Positions 3,406-13,933 of a stretch of 15,993 nt of DNA are shown in pieces. The position numbers and the translations under genes are program-made. Within the stretch, counting starts at the first letter, position 1. Every line of letters starts with the position of its first letter. The notes under the pieces were generated by a model, which saw only the letters and a list, made by a program, of their open reading frames with translations, searched no databases and was not told the origin of the DNA. Origin of the DNA: Phycisphaerae bacterium (GTDB lineage: Bacteria; Planctomycetota; Phycisphaerae; Tepidisphaerales; Tepidisphaeraceae); assembly GCA_025936175.1 (NCBI GenBank), contig JAICTV010000121.1, positions 1 to 15,993 of the forward strand. The letters run 5' to 3'.

Positions 3406-3807
3406 TTAATCCCAGCGGAAAACGCCCTTGCCCCACGCGTACGCGTACGCGACCAGCAGCAGCGCAACGAAGATCAAGAGGCTGATAAGCAGCGCCGCCC
3501 CCTGCTGCGGCGTGCCGGTACGGACGACCGGCGCGAAGATCGTCGCCCAGGGGTAGAAGAAGATGATGTCCACGTCGATGACCAGGAAGATCATCGCGAC
3601 GATGTAGAAGCGGACGTTGAACCGCCGGCGGGTGTCGCCGACGGGGACCATGCCGCTCTCGTAGGTCGCCGCCTTGCCCGGCCCGGTGCGGCTGGGGCCG
3701 ATGATCAGCGATGCGACGATGTTGCTGACGACGAAACCTACGCCGATGATGATCAACAGCACGACCGGCAGCCAGTTGGACGGGGCATCTTCCATGTCGG
3801 GCGGCAT
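3406..3807 (-). CDS. nuoA: NADH-quinone oxidoreductase subunit A
   Basis: Translation reads MPPDMEDAPSNWLPVVLLIIIGVGFVVSNIVASLIIGPSRTGPGKAATYESGMVPVGDTRRRFNVRFYIVAMIFLVIDVDIIFFYPWATIF...LIFVALLLVAYAYAWGKGVFRWD, a canonical NuoA/ND3 with three TM helices and the conserved ESG and FD(V/I)E motifs. The track ORF starts at 3882, but the upstream 25 codons run through the heptamer repeat. ATG at 3807 (or the second ATG at 3795, MEDAPS...) gives a normal ~130-aa NuoA. Confidence 0.85.
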   Translation of the reverse strand: MPPDMEDAPSNWLPVVLLIIIGVGFVVSNIVASLIIGPSRTGPGKAATYESGMVPVGDTRRRFNVRFYIVAMIFLVIDVDIIFFYPWATIFAPVVRTGTPQQGAALLISLLIFVALLLVAYAYAWGKGVFRWD

Positions 3808-3811
3808 AGTA

Positions 3812-3906
3812 GATTTGCGATTTGCGATTTGCAATTTGCGATTTGATGCAGATTGGACGATTGAGTCCGTTTGCAATCGCAAATCGCAAATCTAAAATCG
3901 GAAATC
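3812..3906. repeat. ~95-bp imperfect palindrome made of heptamer repeats. Five direct GATTTGC-type units (3812-3846), a 26-bp spacer (itself containing GATTG x2), then five inverted GCAAATC-type units (3873-3906).
   Basis: Read directly: GATTTGC GATTTGC GATTTGC AATTTGC GATTTGA tgcagattggacgattgagtccgttt GCAATC GCAAATC GCAAATC TAAAATC GGAAATC GCAC. It fills the whole gap between the nuoA start (3807, minus) and the nuoB start (3911, plus). Confidence 0.8.
3871..3898 (+). promoter_or_regulatory. Putative sigma70-like promoter for nuoB embedded in the right repeat arm (TTGCAA -16 nt- TAAAAT), implying a very short leader. A mirrored TTGCAA(3829-3834) -17 nt- TACTAT(3811-3806) exists on the minus strand for nuoA.
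   Basis: Hexamers are read from the sequence. -35 TTGCAA at 3871-3876 matches TTGACA at 5/6. -10 TAAAAT at 3893-3898 matches TATAAT at 5/6. The spacer is 16 nt. The predicted TSS at ~3905 is 6 nt before the nuoB ATG. This is a pattern match only, and this clade's promoter consensus is unknown. Confidence 0.3.
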
Positions 3907-3910
3907 GCAC

Positions 3911-4480
3911 ATGATCGACACCCAACAGCTTCCCGACAACGTCCTGACCACGCAGCTCAAGAAGGTCGTCAACTGGGCGCGGCGCAGCTCGCTCTGGCCG
4001 ATGCCCTTCGCTACCGCGTGCTGCGGCATCGAGCTGATGGCCACCGGCGCATCGCGCTACGACATCGCCCGCTTCGGCGCCGAGGCGATGCGCTTTTCAC
4101 CGCGGCAGGCGGATCTGATGATCGTCGCCGGGCGCGTCACCATCAAAATGATGCCGGTCCTCCAGCACATCTACCAGCAGATGACCGAGCCGAAGTGGGT
4201 CATCTCGATGGGCGCGTGCGCCAGCACGGGCGGGGTGTTCGACGCGTACGCGACGATCCAGGGGATCGATCAGTTCATGCCGGTGGACGTCTACATCCCC
4301 GGCTGCCCGCCGCGACCCGAGACGCTGCTCGAAGGCGTGATGGCGATTCAGAAAATCGTCGATGAGGACGGCCTGCCTCCCGCGGGCAAGCGGCGCCCGC
4401 TGCAGATCGCAATCGAGCCGAGCTACGTCCCCTCGCCGCAGCCCGTCGTGCCGATCACCCTGGGTGGGCGCGGAATGTAA
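3911..4480 (+). CDS. nuoB: NADH-quinone oxidoreductase subunit B (20-kDa Fe-S subunit) with a ~40-aa Pro-rich C-terminal tail
   Basis: Contains [18 protein letters not shown] ... [11 protein letters not shown] ... IPGCPPRPE, which are the NuoB/PSST cysteine motifs for cluster N2. TAA at 4478-4480. Confidence 0.9.
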
Positions 4481-4542: not shown

Positions 4543-5253
4543 ATGCCCATCCTCCAAGGCGCGATCGAACGCAAGCTCTCCGCCCTCCTCGGGGCGCTCG
4601 TCACCTTCGACAAACTGAACCTGTCGCCGTTCAAGGGCGCGATCGAAGTTCTGGGCGTGCGCGTGGGCGACGTCGCCACCGTCGCGCGCGTACACGTCGA
4701 GGTCGCGATCGGCCGCGCGCTCAAGGGCGAGTTTGTCGTCAAGTCACTGACAATCGAGCGACCGACGGTGAATCTCGTCCGGCGTGCGGACGGATCGTTG
4801 AACCTTCCCAAGCCCAAGTCCAAACCTCCGGCCGCGGCGCCCGCCCCGGCGGAAGCGGAAGAAGAATCCGGCAAGTGGACGTTCGACGCGGAGAAGGTGT
4901 TGCTCGTCGACGGCCAGGTCAACATCATCGCCGGCACGTATCGAGCGTCGGTCGAGAGGCTACTGGTGGAGCTCAAACGATCCGGCGGCGCATACAACGT
5001 CACGCTTCTCGCCCATTCGATCGGCCGGCGCGACGAGCCGGCGGAACTGGGCGAACTTCGCGGCAACGGCGTCATCACCAACGCCGCCGACCTCTCCGCC
5101 CTCTCCCGCGCCGCTGCCGACCTCACGCTGCAACTGGGCGATCTGCTGAAGATGAAGCTCCGCACCGCCGAGATCGGCAGCCTGGTGTTCGACGCCGCGC
5201 TCGACGGGCACATAGACGTTGCGCGCGTCAAGAAGCTGCTCCCGCCCTCGTAG
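4543..5253 (+). CDS. Hypothetical protein with an AsmA-like repeat motif (no N-terminal TM)
   Basis: 236-aa ORF with high GC3 and normal Lys/Glu content, unlike the overlapping Arg-rich ORFs 4362..5438(+) and 4533..5528(-). The segment IEVLGVRVGDVATVARVHVEVAIGRALKGEFVVKSLTIERPTVNLVRRADGSLNL resembles the repeated beta-rich motif of AsmA/TamB-family proteins (...L.L.RP.i.L.R..DG..N). This is judged from memory only. Confidence 0.55.
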   Translation: MPILQGAIERKLSALLGALVTFDKLNLSPFKGAIEVLGVRVGDVATVARVHVEVAIGRALKGEFVVKSLTIERPTVNLVRRADGSLNLPKPKSKPPAAAPAPAEAEEESGKWTFDAEKVLLVDGQVNIIAGTYRASVERLLVELKRSGGAYNVTLLAHSIGRRDEPAELGELRGNGVITNAADLSALSRAAADLTLQLGDLLKMKLRTAEIGSLVFDAALDGHIDVARVKKLLPPS

Positions 5254-5280
5254 GGGCGACGCCTGCGTCGCCCTCTTTTG
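5253..5280 (+). terminator. Putative rho-independent terminator directly after the 4543..5253 stop: GC-rich 8-9 bp hairpin (GGGCGACG cctg CGTCGCCC) followed by TCTTTTG
   Basis: Stem pairs 5254-5261 with 5266-5273, loop 5262-5265, T-tract 5274-5279. A reverse-complementary copy of the stem at 5292-5311 allows an alternative long hairpin (see findings). Confidence 0.5.
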
Positions 5281-5353
5281 GGCGCGGCGGTGGCGACGCA
5301 GGCGTCGCCCCTACTTGTCCCACTTGCGCGCCGGCCGTACGTTTTTGTTCGCG

Positions 5354-6301
5354 ATGTCCACCCCCGAAGCGGTCCTGGTCGCCGAGCAGTTGCGCGTCCG
5401 CTTCGGCGGATTCGATGCCGTACACGATGTCTCGCTGACGCTGCGCGGCGGAGATCTGCTCGGACTGATCGGGCCCAACGGCGCCGGCAAGACGACGCTG
5501 CTCCGCGCACTCTGCGGCATCCAGCCACTCACGCGCGGCGTGGTGAATGTCCTCGGCGAGCCACTCGTCCCGGGCGCATCACACCTGATCCGCCACCTCG
5601 GCTTCACTCCCGACACGCCGGCAGTTTACGAAGAGCTCACCGTGCGCGATTTCCTCCGCTTCATCGCCAAGGGCTACGAGCACGCCGGGCCGGAAGTCGA
5701 TGAGCGCATCAATTTCTGGCTCGAGAAAGTATGGCTGCTTGAAAAAGCCGGGATGAAGATCAAGACCCTGTCGCGCGGGATGCGGCAGCGCATCGGCATC
5801 GCGCGCACGCTGCTGCCAAATCCGTCGATCGTGCTGCTGGACGAGCCCACCGCCGGCCTCGACCCCGCCGGCCGGGTCCAGTTCCGCCAACTGCTCGTGA
5901 CCTTGCGCGAACAGGGCAAAGGACTGATCGTGTCATCGCACAACCTGCTCGACATGGGCGAGTACTGCTCGCACATCGCCATCATGTCCAAGGGACAGAT
6001 CGTGCGTTACGGCACGGTCAACGAGATCGCCACCGGCGGCGACGCGAGCCGCTGCCGGTACACCATCACTCTCGCGCATCCCGTCACGCGCGTCGAGCAG
6101 ATGCTCGAATCGATCGACGACGTCGGCGACGTCGAGATCGACGGCGAGCGGATCACGATCGAGTTCATCAACGATAAGGACGCGGCGGCCGCCCTGCTGC
6201 TCAAGCTCATCGAAATGAAGCTCCCGGTCGCGTCGTTCGCGCCCAACGCGCCGGGATTGGAAGAAGCGTACTTAAGGACGGAAGTGGCGCAGGTGGATTA
6301 A
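5354..6301 (+). CDS. ABC transporter ATP-binding protein (ABC-2/CcmA-like family) with ~100-aa C-terminal accessory domain
   Basis: Walker A GPNGAGKTT, signature LSRGMRQR, Walker B IVLLDEPTAGLD, and an H-loop (SSHNL). The track ORF begins at 5219, but its first 45 codons read through the upstream terminator hairpins. ATG at 5354 (MSTPEAVLVAEQLRVRFGG...) is the biologically sensible start. TAA at 6299-6301. Confidence 0.9.
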   Translation: MSTPEAVLVAEQLRVRFGGFDAVHDVSLTLRGGDLLGLIGPNGAGKTTLLRALCGIQPLTRGVVNVLGEPLVPGASHLIRHLGFTPDTPAVYEELTVRDFLRFIAKGYEHAGPEVDERINFWLEKVWLLEKAGMKIKTLSRGMRQRIGIARTLLPNPSIVLLDEPTAGLDPAGRVQFRQLLVTLREQGKGLIVSSHNLLDMGEYCSHIAIMSKGQIVRYGTVNEIATGGDASRCRYTITLAHPVTRVEQMLESIDDVGDVEIDGERITIEFINDKDAAAALLLKLIEMKLPVASFAPNAPGLEEAYLRTEVAQVD

Positions 6302-6335
6302 GAGATTTGCGATTTGCAAATCGCAAATTGCAAAT
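6302..6335. repeat. Second copy of the GATTTGC-heptamer palindrome: GAGATTTGC GATTTGC AAATCGC AAATTGC AAAT, with a perfect 24-bp palindrome at 6305-6328
   Basis: Read directly. It sits in the 37-bp gap between the ABC ATPase stop (6301) and the permease ATG (6339). It is built from the same unit as 3812..3906. Confidence 0.8.
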
Positions 6336-6338
6336 ACC

Positions 6339-7778
6339 ATGGCCTTGCTCGGCCCCAACAACGCGATCGCCTGGGCGCAGTTTCGACTGAGAGGCGGCTG
6401 GAAGAAGTCGCTCGGCTTCAGCGCCGGTGTGTTCGCGCTGCTGGCGATGTTCGTCATCGGCGCGGCGAAGTACGACCCGACGCAGACGACGCGCAATCTC
6501 TTCGGCTGGTGCACCGGGCTGCTCGGACTTGCGGGCGCGGCCGTCGTGCTGATGGCGCCGGGGCGGATCGCGGCCGCCATTCGCGCCGACATCAAGAGCG
6601 GCTTGATCGAATCGCACCGCCTGATGCCGACGACGCCGATCGACGCCGTCGCCGGCTACGTCGTCGGCGCCGCGATCGGTCCGTTGATCTTCTTTGCAGG
6701 CATCTACGTGCTGGGACTGTTCTGCGCTTCCGGCGCGGGCGTTCCACTGGCGCAATGGACCTTCGCCAGCCTCGTGCTGCTCGCGTTCTCGACCTTCATC
6801 TGGGTCCTCGCCGCCTACGTCTCGTTCGCGTCGAAGGCCGGGCCCGGCCTGCTGATCATCCCGCTGTTCGCGATGCCATACGCGTCGGCCGGTGGACTCT
6901 TTTCGCTGCTGCCGGGGATGACGGTGCTCATCAGTCCGATGGCCGGCGGCACCATCTTTGACCTGCGCACCGCCGCGACGATGGCGCTCCCGCCGACCTA
7001 TGCGATGGCGTTCGCGATGCAGGCCCTGGTCGGCGGCATCCTCTTCTTCGCCGCCGCGCGACGCTATCGCACCGCCGACGCCATCGGGCTCGATTGGGCG
7101 CTGGGGCTGATGTTGGTGATTGCGTGGACGTTGCTGTCGGCGATCGGCCTGCGCGAGTGGGACATTTATGAGCCGCGCGGCTGGGGCGTCGGCGGGAAGA
7201 TCGAGCTTTCCGGACGCCTCATCGCCACGATGGTGACCGGCATGATCCTCGCGCTCGCGCCGCTGTCGGCCTCCGCGCTGGCGATGCAACATTGGCGGCG
7301 GCACAAACGCCTGCGCGATCCGTCGCCGATGCGCAGGCCTCTGTTCCCGGGCCTCGTGTTGCTCGCGGTGACGATTGCGATCCTGCTCGTCGTCTACGCA
7401 CCGCCGGATGTTCCCAAGCCCGCGCTCGGCGACGTCGCGCTCAGCGCCATCACCATCGCGATCTCGCTCGCAGCGATCTACTTCCTCTGTGCGTGGCTCT
7501 ACCTCGGCACGCAAAACGCGGCGATCCCGATCATCATCTGGATCATCGTCTTCTGGCTCGTGCCCGTCTTCGTGGACCTGATCCGCTTCGCGCTGGCCGA
7601 CTACGGCGAAGCCGATCCGATCGGCGGCATCTCCGCGTGCAGCCCGATCGGCGCGCTCATCGTCATCTGGACGCATCGCAGCGCGCCGATCATCGCCGGA
7701 ATCGTGATGCAATTGCTCATCATGACGATCCCGCTGGCGCTGCGGATGATCCTGCGCCCCCGGCGAGCTACCCACTAG
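6339..7778 (+). CDS. Polytopic membrane protein, probable fused/duplicated ABC-2 family permease (~12 TM) partner of the upstream ATPase
   Basis: 479 aa, strongly hydrophobic throughout. The N-terminal half has the ABC-2 permease-like segment IKSGLIESHRLMPTTPIDAVAGYVVG (the E...L...P motif). It is 38 bp downstream of the ATPase gene on the same strand, so co-transcription is likely. The opposite-strand 525-aa ORF 6207..7784 is an Arg/Asp-rich shadow. Confidence 0.75.
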   Translation: MALLGPNNAIAWAQFRLRGGWKKSLGFSAGVFALLAMFVIGAAKYDPTQTTRNLFGWCTGLLGLAGAAVVLMAPGRIAAAIRADIKSGLIESHRLMPTTPIDAVAGYVVGAAIGPLIFFAGIYVLGLFCASGAGVPLAQWTFASLVLLAFSTFIWVLAAYVSFASKAGPGLLIIPLFAMPYASAGGLFSLLPGMTVLISPMAGGTIFDLRTAATMALPPTYAMAFAMQALVGGILFFAAARRYRTADAIGLDWALGLMLVIAWTLLSAIGLREWDIYEPRGWGVGGKIELSGRLIATMVTGMILALAPLSASALAMQHWRRHKRLRDPSPMRRPLFPGLVLLAVTIAILLVVYAPPDVPKPALGDVALSAITIAISLAAIYFLCAWLYLGTQNAAIPIIIWIIVFWLVPVFVDLIRFALADYGEADPIGGISACSPIGALIVIWTHRSAPIIAGIVMQLLIMTIPLALRMILRPRRATH

Positions 7779-11397: not shown

Positions 11398-11451
11398 GCG
11401 ATCGCCGAGCCACGCAGAAAATTCGCAATTGAATCGGCGGCGGGCCACGCT

Positions 11452-13590
11452 ATGTTGCCCGCCGCCGTGCCTTTGAACCCGCACCAGGAACAAATCGCCA
11501 ACCACGTCTTCGGCCGAATCCTCACCCTCGCGGGGCCGGGATCGGGAAAGACGCGCACGCTCACCGAGCGCACCGGCCGGCTGATCCGCCACGGCTTCGA
11601 GCCGGCGTCGATCCTCTGCCTCACGTTCACGAACAAGGCGCGTGACGAGATGCGGCAGCGGATCGCCGCCGTGCAGGGCAAGGCGGCAGAAAAAGTCTTC
11701 ATCTCGAACTTTCACGGCCTGTGCGGGACGCTGCTGCGGCGATTCGGCGCCGCGATCGGCTACACCGCGCGGATGACGATCTGCGACAGCGACGATCAGA
11801 TCGACCTGCTCCTCCAGATCGCCCGCCGCCGCGGGCTCGAGCCCACCAAACCGCAAGCGCGCACGCTCGCCTTCATCGCCAACGACTTTCGCGAAAACAA
11901 TTCCGATCTCGAGTCGCTCGCGGCGGATCGCAAGCTCTCGGCGGGCGAGACGAACGTCGTCCGCGCGTACTTCGAGCTGCTGCGCTCGCGCAACCAGTGC
12001 GACTTCTCCGGCATGCTCAGCGAAGCCGCCCGGCTGCTGCGCGAGTGCGATGACGTCCGCGCGAAGCTCCACAAGCGCTTCCGCTTCATTCAGGTCGACG
12101 AGTACCAGGACACCAACAAGGCACAGAACGAGATCGTCGAGCTGCTCGCCGGCAAGGAGGACAACGTGCTCGCGGTCGGCGACGGCGATCAATCGATCTA
12201 CGAGTGGCGCGGCGCCACGCCGGACGCCATCCCGCAGTTCATCGCCAACGGCCGGCGCAAGACCGGCAAGTGCGAAGTGATCAAGCTCGGGCTGAACTAT
12301 CGCTCGACGCCGCAGATCATCCGGGCGGCGGACACGCTGATCCGCCACTGCAAATCGCGCACGCCGATCGATTTCGACACGCCCAACAAGGCGGGCGAGC
12401 CGCCCAGGTGCGTCAAGTTCGAGCATCCGGAGGCCGAGGCCGAAGGCGTCGCGACCAGCATCGCGAACACGATCAAGTCCGGCACGACGGCGCGCGAGAT
12501 CGCGGTGTTCTTCCGCACCAACGACATGTCACGGCTGATGGAGCAGTCGCTGGCGAAGCGGCAAATTCCGTATCAGGTCGTCGGTGCCGGCTCATACTAC
12601 GACCGGATGGAAGTCAAAGACGTGCTGTCGATGCTGCGCTTCGTCTGCAATCCGTTCGACGGGATCTCCTTCCATCGCATTGCCAACAAACCCGCGCGCG
12701 GCATGGGCGACACGCTGATCGGCCGGCTCGAGCACTTCGCCGAGCTGCACAAGATCGACATCCTCACCGCGATGCAGGAGCGGAACCTGGAATTCGTCCG
12801 CGACGAGAACGACAAGCCGCTCTCGGACGCCGCCCTCCGCGCCTGCCGTGAGACGCGCTGCATCTTCGATTTCGACGTCGCGCGCGCCGGCGTCGCCGAC
12901 GTCGCGAGCGAGCTTCTCCGCCGCAGCCGATACGATGAGTGGCTCAAAGCCCGCTACGACGAGAAGAGCGAGTACGAGGAGCGCAGCCGCAACGTGAACG
13001 AGCTCGTGAACGCGATCGCGGAGTTCGCGCGCACGAACGGCGGTGGCGGCGCGGGCGTCGGTGGCGCCGCGGGCGTCGGCGAATATCTCGAATCGATCTC
13101 GCTCTACACCGCCGGCGACGACGCCAAAGAGGACGAGCGCAAGAACGGCGTCCGCCTGATGTCGCTGCACGCGAGCAAGGGGCTGGAGTTCGACGTGGTC
13201 TACATGATCGGCGTCGAGCACCGCATCCTGCCGCACGAGAAAGCGCTGGCCGATCGCGGCGAGCGCGGACTGGATGAAGAGCGTCGGCTGTGCTACGTCG
13301 GCTTCACGCGGGCGAAAAAGATCCTGCGGGTCACATGGTGCCAGAAGCGGCAGGACGCCTACGCGCGCGGAAAAACCCCGCGATTCAAGCCGTCGGCGCC
13401 CTCGCAGTTTCTTCTCGAAGCCGGTCTGGTCGGCACGGATGATTTCCAGAAGCTGATGCAGGGCGCCGGATACGCGCCGCAGCAGGGCGTGCCCGCCGCG
13501 AAGGCGGTCCCGCCCACGCCCAAGCCAGTGCGCCCCCGCGCGACGCTGAAGTCACGTCGATCAATTCCGCGCACGGCTGCGAAGCAGTAA
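11452..13590 (+). CDS. UvrD/PcrA/Rep-family ATP-dependent DNA helicase (SF1A)
   Basis: LNPHQEQIA...LTLAGPGSGKTRTLTERTGRLI (motif I), CLTFTNKARDEM (Ia), FRFIQVDEYQDTN (II, DEYQD), SIYEWRGA (III), C-terminal ...LMSLHASKGLEFDVVYMIGV...RRLCYVGFTRAKKIL (V/VI). 712 aa with a basic Pro-rich C-terminal tail. Confidence 0.9.
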   Translation: MLPAAVPLNPHQEQIANHVFGRILTLAGPGSGKTRTLTERTGRLIRHGFEPASILCLTFTNKARDEMRQRIAAVQGKAAEKVFISNFHGLCGTLLRRFGAAIGYTARMTICDSDDQIDLLLQIARRRGLEPTKPQARTLAFIANDFRENNSDLESLAADRKLSAGETNVVRAYFELLRSRNQCDFSGMLSEAARLLRECDDVRAKLHKRFRFIQVDEYQDTNKAQNEIVELLAGKEDNVLAVGDGDQSIYEWRGATPDAIPQFIANGRRKTGKCEVIKLGLNYRSTPQIIRAADTLIRHCKSRTPIDFDTPNKAGEPPRCVKFEHPEAEAEGVATSIANTIKSGTTAREIAVFFRTNDMSRLMEQSLAKRQIPYQVVGAGSYYDRMEVKDVLSMLRFVCNPFDGISFHRIANKPARGMGDTLIGRLEHFAELHKIDILTAMQERNLEFVRDENDKPLSDAALRACRETRCIFDFDVARAGVADVASELLRRSRYDEWLKARYDEKSEYEERSRNVNELVNAIAEFARTNGGGGAGVGGAAGVGEYLESISLYTAGDDAKEDERKNGVRLMSLHASKGLEFDVVYMIGVEHRILPHEKALADRGERGLDEERRLCYVGFTRAKKILRVTWCQKRQDAYARGKTPRFKPSAPSQFLLEAGLVGTDDFQKLMQGAGYAPQQGVPAAKAVPPTPKPVRPRATLKSRRSIPRTAAKQ

Positions 13591-13775: not shown

Positions 13776-13804
13776 TTGGCCATCGCCGCCGGCGCTGCTA
13801 TCAT
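13776..13804 (+). promoter_or_regulatory. Putative sigma70-like promoter for tRNA-Gly: TTGGCC -17 nt- TATCAT, ending ~24 nt upstream of the mature tRNA 5' end
   Basis: Hexamers are read from the sequence. The -10 matches TATAAT at 5/6. This is a pattern match only. Confidence 0.3.
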
Positions 13805-13828: not shown

Positions 13829-13901
13829 GCGGGTGTAGCTCAATTGGCAGAGCGTGGGCTTTCCAAGCCCAATGTTGAGGGTTCAACTCCCTTCACCCGC
13901 T
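13829..13901 (+). tRNA. tRNA-Gly (anticodon UCC), 73 nt, CCA not encoded
   Basis: Manual fold. Acceptor GCGGGTG/CACCCGC (7 bp). D-stem GCTC/GAGC with loop AATTGGCA. Anticodon stem TGGGC/GCCCA with loop TTTCCAA, giving anticodon TCC and A37. Variable loop ATGTT. T-stem GAGGG/CCCTT with loop TTCAACT. Discriminator U. Confidence 0.9.
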
Positions 13902-13905
13902 CATC

Positions 13906-13933
13906 GACCCGTCCACGCCGGACGGGTTTTTTT
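13906..13933 (+). terminator. Rho-independent terminator after tRNA-Gly: 7-bp stem CCCGTCC/GGACGGG, 5-nt loop, T7
   Basis: Stem pairs 13908-13914 with 13920-13926, T-run 13927-13933. It lies in the convergent gap before the minus-strand ABC permease stop (13981). Confidence 0.7.

Follow-up and report, generated by a model that had tools for sequence, protein, structure and literature searches.

The 15,993-bp stretch of DNA considered here (hereafter the window) is a complete contig, JAICTV010000121.1, from a bacterium of the Phycisphaerae. It contains a divergent nuoA/nuoB gene pair, and the gap between the two genes is taken up by two tandem arrays of a seven-nucleotide unit. A sequence-only reading of this DNA had described five GATTTGC-type units followed by five inverted units filling the gap, and Tandem Repeats Finder agrees (Table 1); the spacer between them, put at 26 bp in that reading, is actually 29-31 nt. 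The plus-strand GATTTGC of the left array is GCAAATC in the sense of nuoA, and the right array reads AATCGCA/GCAAATC in the sense of nuoB. The two inverted arms (3812-3843 and 3875-3906) are 32 nt each and 88% complementary, with 31 nt between them. In all three cases in the window, counting a smaller array at a second site, (GCAAATC)n stands immediately 5′ of the ATG on the sense strand of the neighbouring gene, and two such outward-facing arrays between divergent genes account for the inverted symmetry of the nuoA/nuoB element. The double unit GATTTGCGATTTGC, with up to two mismatches, occurs 10 times in the window compared with 0.22 times in shuffled sequences. An independent JGI contig (L132; the labels L001 to L211 denote fetched contigs or loci compared with the window), 98.4% identical to the window over 2084 nt, carries the same arrays, which excludes an assembly artefact. 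Two short-read contigs with identical NuoB, L001 and L002, both begin within the right arm (at 3874 and 3882, respectively), and short-read assemblies appear to break at the repeat, as expected of multi-copy sequence.

Table 1. Positions, in window coordinates, of the nuoA/nuoB genes, the heptamer arrays and the predicted promoter elements.
Feature	Position	Strand	Evidence and remarks
nuoA coding sequence	3406-3795	-	Pfam Oxidored_q4, E = 1e-29; conserved start MEDAPSNW...
Predicted PnuoA -10 box, TACTAT	3806-3811	-	Overlaps ATG 3807; 10 nt upstream of ATG 3795
Left heptamer array	3812-3845	-	Tandem Repeats Finder: period 7, 4.9 copies, 92% matches, unit GATTTGC
Predicted PnuoA -35 box, TTGCAA (palindromic hexamer)	3829-3834	-	Conserved in orthologues
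Central non-repeat spacer	3846-3874	.	Two GATTG half-units and a short inverted repeat GGAC...GTCC
Predicted PnuoB -35 box, TTGCAA	3871-3876	+	Consensus scan and orthologue conservation
Right heptamer array	3875-3909	+	Tandem Repeats Finder: period 7, 5.0 copies, 82% matches, unit AATCGCA
Predicted PnuoB -10 box, TAAAAT	3893-3898	+	12 nt upstream of nuoB ATG 3911
nuoB coding sequence	3911-4480	+	Pfam Oxidored_q6, E = 3e-29; start ATGATCGACAC conserved
Second, smaller palindromic array, GATTTGCGATTTGCAAATCGCAAATTGCAAATA	6304-6336	+	(GATTTGC)2, AAATC, GCAAATT, GCAAATA

The right array ends 4 nt short of the nuoB ATG, exactly as first described. On the nuoA side the first description needs correcting: the array lies 4 nt from an upstream in-frame ATG at 3807, which would give MPPD-MEDAPS, and 16 nt from the ATG at 3795, which is probably the true start. 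We moved the start to 3795 because most orthologues begin there and because ATG 3807 overlaps a conserved -10 box, TACTAT.

Orthologous loci were gathered from three sources: homologues of the 479-aa protein encoded from 6339, a NuoB cluster at 90% identity, and a metagenome scan with NuoA that gave 80 loci. The set of divergent nuoA/nuoB regions numbers ten, namely the window, its near-identical copy L132, L121, L134-L138, L141 and L149. A sigma70-like consensus scan of the window returned 5 rows, compared with 1.7 in shuffled sequences; the predicted nuoB promoter (PnuoB), one of three distinct sites in the 16-kb window, matches the consensus at 9 of 12 positions. The window's predicted boxes are separated by 17 nt at PnuoA and 16 nt at PnuoB. 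On the nuoB side, all ten regions have a TTGACA-like -35, 16-18 nt, a -10 box and then 10-29 nt to the ATG. The -35 hexamer is TTGCAA in four of the ten and TTGCCA, TTGCGA, TTTCCA, TGGCCA or TGGACG in the others; nine regions have TA[A/G]AAT as the -10 box, and L149 has TAAGAT. Scoring on the nuoA side was limited to the seven regions with a conserved ATGGA start, and all seven carry TTGCAA or TTGCGA, 16-17 nt, TAnnnT and then 8-11 nt to the ATG, with the -10 varying across orthologues (TACTAT, TATTAT, TACGAT, TAAAGT, TACAGT and TAACAT). By eye, L135 and L149 have TTGCAA, 16 nt and TACAGT on this side, and L136 keeps a TAGATT-type -10 with only an approximate -35 (TGCAAA). This skeleton of boxes, spacer lengths and ATG distance is conserved in orthologues with and without repeats. 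A candidate Bacteroidetes-type promoter, TAGATTTG (3809-3816, matching TAnnTTTG), was rejected, since no TTTG lies upstream of it and this type of promoter belongs to another phylum.

The heptamers lie directly over these predicted promoters. The left array extends over the spacer and -35 box of PnuoA and on into the sequence upstream, while two variant units of the right array, TAAAATC and GGAAATC, overlap the spacer and -10 box of PnuoB. The four mismatches between the inverted arms all fall within the -35 box (TTGCAA), the -10 box (TAAAAT) or the neighbouring GGAAATC unit. If transcription starts about 7 nt past each -10 box, the leaders of nuoA and nuoB would be roughly 2-7 nt long, and with both predicted starts beyond the arms, neither mRNA would contain both arms. 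We found no data on leaderless transcripts of planctomycetes in the literature searched. Upstream of a UvrD-like helicase gene (11420-11460), the geometry is the same as at nuoA: TTGAAT is followed after 16 nt by TATGTT, which overlaps the annotated ATG 11452, and a GTG lies 10 nt after TATGTT. Judging from the nuoA and UvrD-like cases, this genome may have many very short leaders and many wrongly called starts.

The divergent arrangement is limited to the closest clade, that is, the ten regions above. More distant relatives (L143-L211) have nuoA and then nuoB in the same direction, nuoA being inverted only in the closest clade. Most of the ten divergent regions have no repeats; arrays are present only in the window, with its copy L132, and in L134. 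The sister L121, whose NuoA is 91% identical to that of the window, has the same gene pair and no arrays. L134 does have arrays, with a NuoA only 77% identical to that of the window, and its nearest relatives L137 (84%), L135 and L136 have none. This distribution requires either independent gain or repeated loss. The nuoB side of the window aligns with that of L121 without gaps (window TTTGCAATCGCAAATCGCAAATCTAAAATCGGAAATCGCACATG, L121 TTTGCAATCGAAAGGTGCAGACCTAGAATCACTCACCGCCGATG), with differences in spacer and leader bases only. The nuoA spacers are 17 nt in both and unrelated in sequence (window GATTTGCGATTTGCGAT, L121 AAACGATGACCCATCCT). The gap between the two -35 boxes is 36 nt in the window compared with 10 nt in the array-free L121. 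Equal spacer lengths together with a wider -35 gap indicate that heptamers overwrote the spacers at constant length, adding ~26 bp centrally. A seed remains in the -35 region of array-free relatives, GATTTGCAAT(CG) in L137, L138 and L141, with the variants GATTTGCAATTG, GATTTGCAATTTGCCAAATGCGATTGCG and TTTGCAATCGCAAATGCG, respectively. As can be read from the repeat itself, TCGCAA and GCAAAT lie exactly 17 nt apart in a perfect GCAAATC array, so three substitutions give TTGCAA, 17 nt, TAAAAT.

Co-directional relatives show related arrangements built from other units. A frequent layout is the nuoA stop, (heptamer)n, a loop, (inverted heptamer)n, a -10 box and the nuoB ATG, where the -10 (TATAAT, TATAGT, TACAAT or TAGAAT) abuts the second arm or lies at most ~30 nt beyond it; TATAAT stands ~10 nt before the nuoB ATG in many of these relatives. 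The unit in the nuoA-nuoB spacer differs by lineage: AATGCCG in L161 and L167, TCGAAAC in L168, CGATGAA in L179, AATGACG in L177 and AATCCGA in L165. GATTTGC itself occupies the spacer of L195, and L163 has a single GATTTGC array with no inverted partner. Array-free co-directional lineages have a 25-33-nt spacer with one AATGCCGAT. Inserts of 600-700 nt separate nuoA from nuoB in three loci (L157 465-1085, L192 1513-2232 and L196 1611-2327), with inverted arrays of 7-8-nt units at their boundaries (GGTGACAA/TTGTCACC and CACGGAG/CTCCGTG); these inserts may be larger elements with repeat-array termini.

From this comparison we lean, modestly, towards reading the nuoA/nuoB element as two heptamer simple-repeat arrays laid over two back-to-back sigma70-type promoters, grown by slippage, with an incidental palindrome and with any action exerted at the level of DNA. 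The arrays would have grown by slippage or duplication from a palindromic -35 seed, GATTTGCAATC, still present in array-free relatives, and selection would have removed the variants that broke promoter geometry. The palindrome would then be a by-product of outward-facing arrays rather than something selected for pairing. With the arms upstream of the predicted transcripts, the element would work, if at all, on DNA: the arrays may be tolerated, and perhaps favoured by selection, as AT-rich DNA that adjusts promoter strength from the spacer or the upstream region; alternatively, they may provide a landing array for a repeat-binding protein. A GCAAATC array would also amount to a proto-promoter pointing into the gene, which could be the reason for the orientation bias of the family described below. 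The arrays at nuoA/nuoB are dispensable, because sister lineages lack them.

The element is one member of a heptamer-repeat family that is dispersed over many genomes and turns over rapidly. The motif is not confined to the two sites of the window, as the chance tract considered in the sequence-only reading would be. A scan of a genome collection with three heptamer units matched at least 118 stretches, 847 kb in all. The hosts among the matches listed are Pyrinomonadaceae, Blastocatellaceae, Rikenellaceae and other Bacteroidales, Verrucomicrobiota, Phycisphaerae, Pirellulales and Chloroflexota, and several of the genomes listed have multiple heptamer-array matches. Counting perfect tandem arrays of at least three units in the 847 kb, again among the matches listed, gave 156 arrays of period 7, compared with 0, 7, 4 and 1 of periods 5, 6, 8 and 9; 103 of the 156 are of the GCAAATC class and 53 are spread across 33 other unit classes. 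A 295-kb Phycisphaerae sample, chosen without regard to repeats and scored with one mismatch allowed, contained 26 arrays of period 7, 13 each of periods 5 and 6, 4 of period 8, 1 of period 9 and 0 of period 10. Palindromic elements in this sample number about 8, counted from the listed arrays, or ~1 per 37 kb; the window has two sites in 16 kb. The raw number of matches was rejected as proof of a special motif, since composition-matched control heptamers are equally frequent in viral contigs ((GATTTGC)3 8 matches, controls 8 and 7). Specificity therefore rests on the genomes with several matches, on orientation and on polarity.

Orientation was counted for arrays with the ATG of an ORF (open reading frame) of at least 80 codons no more than 15 nt downstream. 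Among the matches listed, the ATG is faced by the GCAAATC sense in 23 cases and by the opposite sense in 2 (p = 2e-5). Paired arrays at the fetched loci, likewise among the matches listed, always run 5′-(GATTTGC)n...(GCAAATC)n-3′ (20 vs. 0), and this layout with its spacer recurs in contigs of Phycisphaerae, Acidobacteriota and Bacteroidota. A lineage-specific miniature repeat family, one of three roles considered in the sequence-only reading, thus comes closest in that the same palindromic layout recurs. The link to respiratory genes suggested there does not hold: array-adjacent genes have varied housekeeping functions, and the sister L121 has the nuoA/nuoB pair without an array. From their N-termini, we take the genes downstream of arrays to include those for GlyRS, NrdR, GlmU, RpsH, HemH, PurQ, UbiX and PiT. 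Array contexts are heterogeneous, some lying within long ORFs or within operons (as at the second site of the window) and many Bacteroidales arrays lying between convergent genes, so the family is not uniformly at 5′ ends.

Some members of the family show how arrays are combined. In a Phycisphaerales genome (MFD04492.bin.1.43), the copies at L046 4343-4450 and at L117 2447-2539 and 6809-6893 have shared arms and a similar core, (G)GAAT(G/A)CAGA..ACGTCTCC..CTTC, which suggests one element that was copied rather than independent local expansions. Different heptamers abut in L005, L034 and L099, where (GACCGAA)n, (GGAATCT)n or (GTTGARA)n stands directly before (CAAATCG)n. L050, an Akkermansia contig listed alongside these, has 22 units in which CGTAAAT and CGCAAAT are mixed.

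The second site of the window lies between the stop codon TAA of an ABC ATPase gene (6299-6301) and ATG 6339 of the 479-aa membrane protein. It has 2 + 3 units and ends 2 nt before that ATG, in the GCAAATC sense. At the same junction in L121 and L122, stop and start are only 3 nt apart, which makes the second site an insertion that arose in the window's lineage; the flanking bases show no evident target-site duplication. A more distant relative, L124 (70-143), carries (CTGAGGA)n, an 8-nt loop and (TCCTCAG)n at this junction. This hairpin is near-perfect (-54 kcal/mol), ends 6 nt before the ATG of the 479-aa orthologue and is built from a unit unrelated to that of the window. Between the DUF748 and ABC ATPase genes there is also a perfect 23-nt GC-rich inverted repeat (5250-5272 GTAGGGGCGACGCCTGCGTCGCC and 5292-5314 GGCGACGCAGGCGTCGCCCCTAC, 19 nt between the arms). 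It fits the description of a REP (repetitive extragenic palindromic) element and is separate from the heptamer arrays; a similar GTAGGGGCGA...TCGCCCCTAC element is present in the nuoA-nuoB intergenic region of L149.

Several observations weigh against slippage-grown arrays over promoters as the full account. The transcription starts are predicted from consensus and conservation alone, and planctomycete promoters are poorly characterised. Many GCAAATC arrays in other phyla end 2-4 nt before an ATG and have no -10-like hexamer; these arrays fit a role in the 5′ leader better, and the promoter overlay may be particular to this locus. A promoter model applied to all start-proximal arrays in fact fails, with about 5 of 23 ending in TAAAATC and several having no -10-like hexamer. 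The window and L134 have almost the same right arm despite a NuoA identity of 77%, which calls for convergence or transfer of the element. Local slippage cannot have produced the second site, where the point of insertion lacks a promoter seed. Neutral slippage also falls short of a full explanation for the strict 20:0 polarity among the listed pairs, and the recurrence of one unit in several phyla is a hint that something reads it specifically.

An alternative is that the arrays act in RNA, as translational leaders in which transcribed (GCAAAUC)n, unstructured and free of start codons and of a Shine-Dalgarno sequence, recruits ribosomes or an OB-fold protein (S1, Csp). We regard this as unlikely for nuoA/nuoB. 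Arrays of Acidobacteriota, Verrucomicrobiota, Planctomycetota and Chloroflexota end 0-12 nt before the ATG of a long ORF, with the 23 vs. 2 bias in sense among the matches listed, and the unit, read in the GCAAATC sense, has no ATG, GTG, TTG or stop in any frame. Neither nuoA nor the gene at 6339 has a canonical Shine-Dalgarno sequence in front of it. TAACTGA repeats, known from marine Beggiatoaceae, Cyanobacteria and some Bacteroidetes (MacGregor, 2015, PMC4679880), are reported to sit in the same place and orientation, and they share several further traits with the arrays described here: both are tandem 7-nt units (2-6 or more copies per set for TAACTGA), mostly intergenic, in one dominant orientation to a start codon that lies a few nt away, usually with no Shine-Dalgarno sequence; both precede diverse genes, have a patchy cross-phylum distribution and no known means of spread, and are of unproven function. 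They differ in unit and in hosts, which for GCAAATC are Planctomycetota, Acidobacteriota, Verrucomicrobiota and others, and GCAAATC arrays often form inverted pairs of fixed polarity, while only one inverted TAACTGA set has been reported (PMC4679880). The comparison at nuoA/nuoB, moreover, places the arrays over promoter elements and not in the leader. The conserved -10 boxes lie inside the arms or at their outer ends, which leaves predicted leaders of at most 7 nt, and array-free orthologues have an equally short distance from -10 to ATG. Both arms, if transcribed, would pair (-51 kcal/mol) and bury the start region.

An operator array, to which a heptad-reading protein such as an omega/ParB-like ribbon-helix-helix protein binds cooperatively and represses both promoters together, seems to us rather improbable. 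The idea has a concrete model. Omega, the ribbon-helix-helix ParB of pSM19035, binds 7-10 contiguous heptads WATCACW (AATCACA, with TGTGATT as its inverse) in direct or inverted orientation, overlapping promoters, and needs at least 4 heptads to function (PMC9499535). The sequence-only reading had called a 7-bp period unlike classic phased operator arrays; omega sites provide a precedent for such a period, and heptamers near start codons have been described as well (PMC4679880). Nor is a 7-bp period simply out of helical phase, as had been argued, since three units make 21 bp, or two helical turns. As with omega sites, there are ~5 heptads per arm, and they cover the predicted -35 box and the spacer at both promoters as well as the -10 box of nuoB. 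AATCGCA fits the omega consensus at six of seven positions, with G in place of A, and thus is one base off AATCACA and outside WATCACW. A unit and strict pair polarity shared across phyla would also suggest a sequence-specific reader. However, omega is plasmid-borne with its cognate protein encoded next to its sites, and the ten large ORFs of the window covered by our Pfam scan include no ribbon-helix-helix match, the small ORFs being outside that scan. The GCAAATC arms are ~30 bp apart and diverge, with left-pointing and then right-pointing units, in contrast to the contiguous omega sites. The GCAAATC family is chromosomal and dispersed, and its arrays also occur within operons (the second site), at 3′ ends, between convergent genes and abutting start codons. 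Sister lineages have AATGCCG, TCGAAAC, CGATGAA or CTGAGGA at equivalent sites, and each of these would need its own reader.

A broader proposal is that GCAAATC and its sibling heptamer arrays are the cis-sites of an undescribed cross-phylum system, consisting of either a heptad-reading protein (ribbon-helix-helix or OB-fold) or a heptamer-writing mechanism. Such a system would place arrays that face outward at the starts of genes, where they would work as portable modules, either promoter or leader. The GCAAATC unit recurs in Planctomycetota, Acidobacteriota, Verrucomicrobiota and Bacteroidota, and the proposal would account for this recurrence as well as for the 20:0 polarity and the 23:2 orientation among the matches listed. 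We consider it a long shot.

Prospects are poorer still for the palindrome as a structural element, in which the arms would pair as a DNA cruciform or an RNA hairpin with a role in transcription termination, in RNase III cleavage, in stabilising mRNA or as a hotspot of recombination; we think this very unlikely. The fold itself is far more stable than those of shuffled sequences (RNA -51.2 kcal/mol, z = -5.7; DNA -29.9 kcal/mol, z = -7.1). Co-directional relatives have long heptamer hairpins right after the nuoA stop, reaching -70 kcal/mol in L167 and a perfect 28-bp stem in L179, and, compared with more distant relatives, the window's clade has the nuoA segment inverted. Between divergent genes, however, there is no 3′ end to terminate or protect. 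The cruciform or RNA hairpin envisaged in the sequence-only reading is also at odds with the position of the -10 boxes, at or inside the outer ends of the arms, from which transcripts are predicted to begin outside the arms. With a 31-nt centre and an imperfect stem, a cruciform would not readily extrude. None of the four arm mismatches is G-U-compatible in plus-strand RNA, all of them being in the boxes or the GGAAATC unit. The sense and antisense folds are about equally stable, and a comparison of sense and antisense fold stability and of G-U pair counts across ten spacers revealed no consistent bias indicative of selection at the RNA level. Pairing would permit either polarity, yet the listed pairs are 20:0. 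A search for intrinsic terminators in 3600-4100 found 0 terminator-like sites, the stems being AT-rich with no T-run. This genome does use classical terminators, since a canonical GC-stem with a T-run follows the tRNA-Gly (TCC) gene; the same stretch (13776-13804, 13829-13902 and 13906-13928) also has an upstream sigma70-like TTGGCC, 17 nt and TATCAT with a TG extension. Apart from this tRNA-Gly, no Rfam family reached its gathering score in the window. Sub-threshold miRNA hairpins, including mir-19, at 3700-4000 were rejected as generic hairpins with a GCAAAUC string.

A chance low-complexity tract or an assembly artefact is effectively refuted: short-read contigs do break inside the right arm and viral contigs show (GATTTGC)3 no more often than controls, but 0 of 200 shuffles reach the observed double-unit count, the independent assembly of the 98.4%-identical strain has the same arrays, and arrays recur in L134 and many other genomes with constant orientation and polarity.

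With these alternatives weighed, slippage-grown arrays over back-to-back promoters remain our preferred reading. Resemblance to REP and BIME elements and to MITEs (miniature inverted-repeat transposable elements) is partial. These too are short, dispersed, intergenic, palindromic and lineage-specific, the second site is an insertion, and the cores of the L046 and L117 copies are similar. REP and BIME elements are unique imperfect palindromes of 20-40 nt that usually lie 3′ of genes, a position that the sequence-only reading had noted for REP; the nuoA/nuoB element consists of tandem-heptamer arms between two 5′ ends, and it has no GTAG-type head. We saw no associated transposase, and the second site shows no evident target-site duplication, which in MITEs accompanies the terminal inverted repeats. 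Other heptanucleotide repeats are closer in kind: the cyanobacterial STRR, for example in Calothrix, GGGAATC in Xanthomonas and GGGGA(T/C)T in Nostoc (Rehm et al., 2015, PMC4692102). They share with GCAAATC an intergenic excess of period 7, variation between close relatives and some inverted pairs. The Xanthomonas and Nostoc repeats are G-rich and quadruplex-capable, whereas GCAAATC is AT-rich with no G-run, and the taxa differ. According to a 2007 report, as cited in PMC4692102, heptamers are over-represented among bacterial simple repeats. The arrays described here have the features of start-proximal heptamer repeats in general, being tandem 7-nt units that are intergenic, near a start and in one preferred orientation; with GCAAATC/GATTTGC as the unit, they are not TAACTGA repeats. 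We found no description of GCAAATC/GATTTGC arrays in the literature searched, and the double unit was not found there in a bacterial context. The GCAAATC arrays are thus an addition to a known, functionally unexplained class of heptamer repeats, and what is noteworthy here is their overlay on conserved promoters, the fixed polarity of pairs and the turnover of units at orthologous sites.

A gene for a DUF1570 protein, identified by Pfam, adjoins nuoA and fits Planctomycetota. The named members of the 90%-identity cluster that contains the window's NuoB are from metagenome-assembled genomes of Phycisphaerales and Tepidisphaeraceae. Within the contig, the pair is separate from any other nuo genes, and nuoB is followed by genes for a DUF748 protein, an ABC transporter and a flotillin-like protein.

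What the element offers is a handle on a long-standing puzzle. The excess of heptamers has been known since 2007, and both its reason and the role of start-adjacent repeats are unexplained. The nuoA/nuoB locus is a clean natural experiment, in which the same gene pair is found array-free, with these arrays or with arrays built from different units, and in which the promoter skeleton serves as a ruler. It makes testable whether the arrays act as promoter DNA or as leader RNA, whether spacers are overwritten at constant length, and whether a GCAAATC array lies three mutations away from a near-consensus promoter. The element tells us nothing specific about the control of respiration. For annotation, the start of nuoA shifts to 3795, and very short leaders are indicated in this lineage of the Phycisphaerae.

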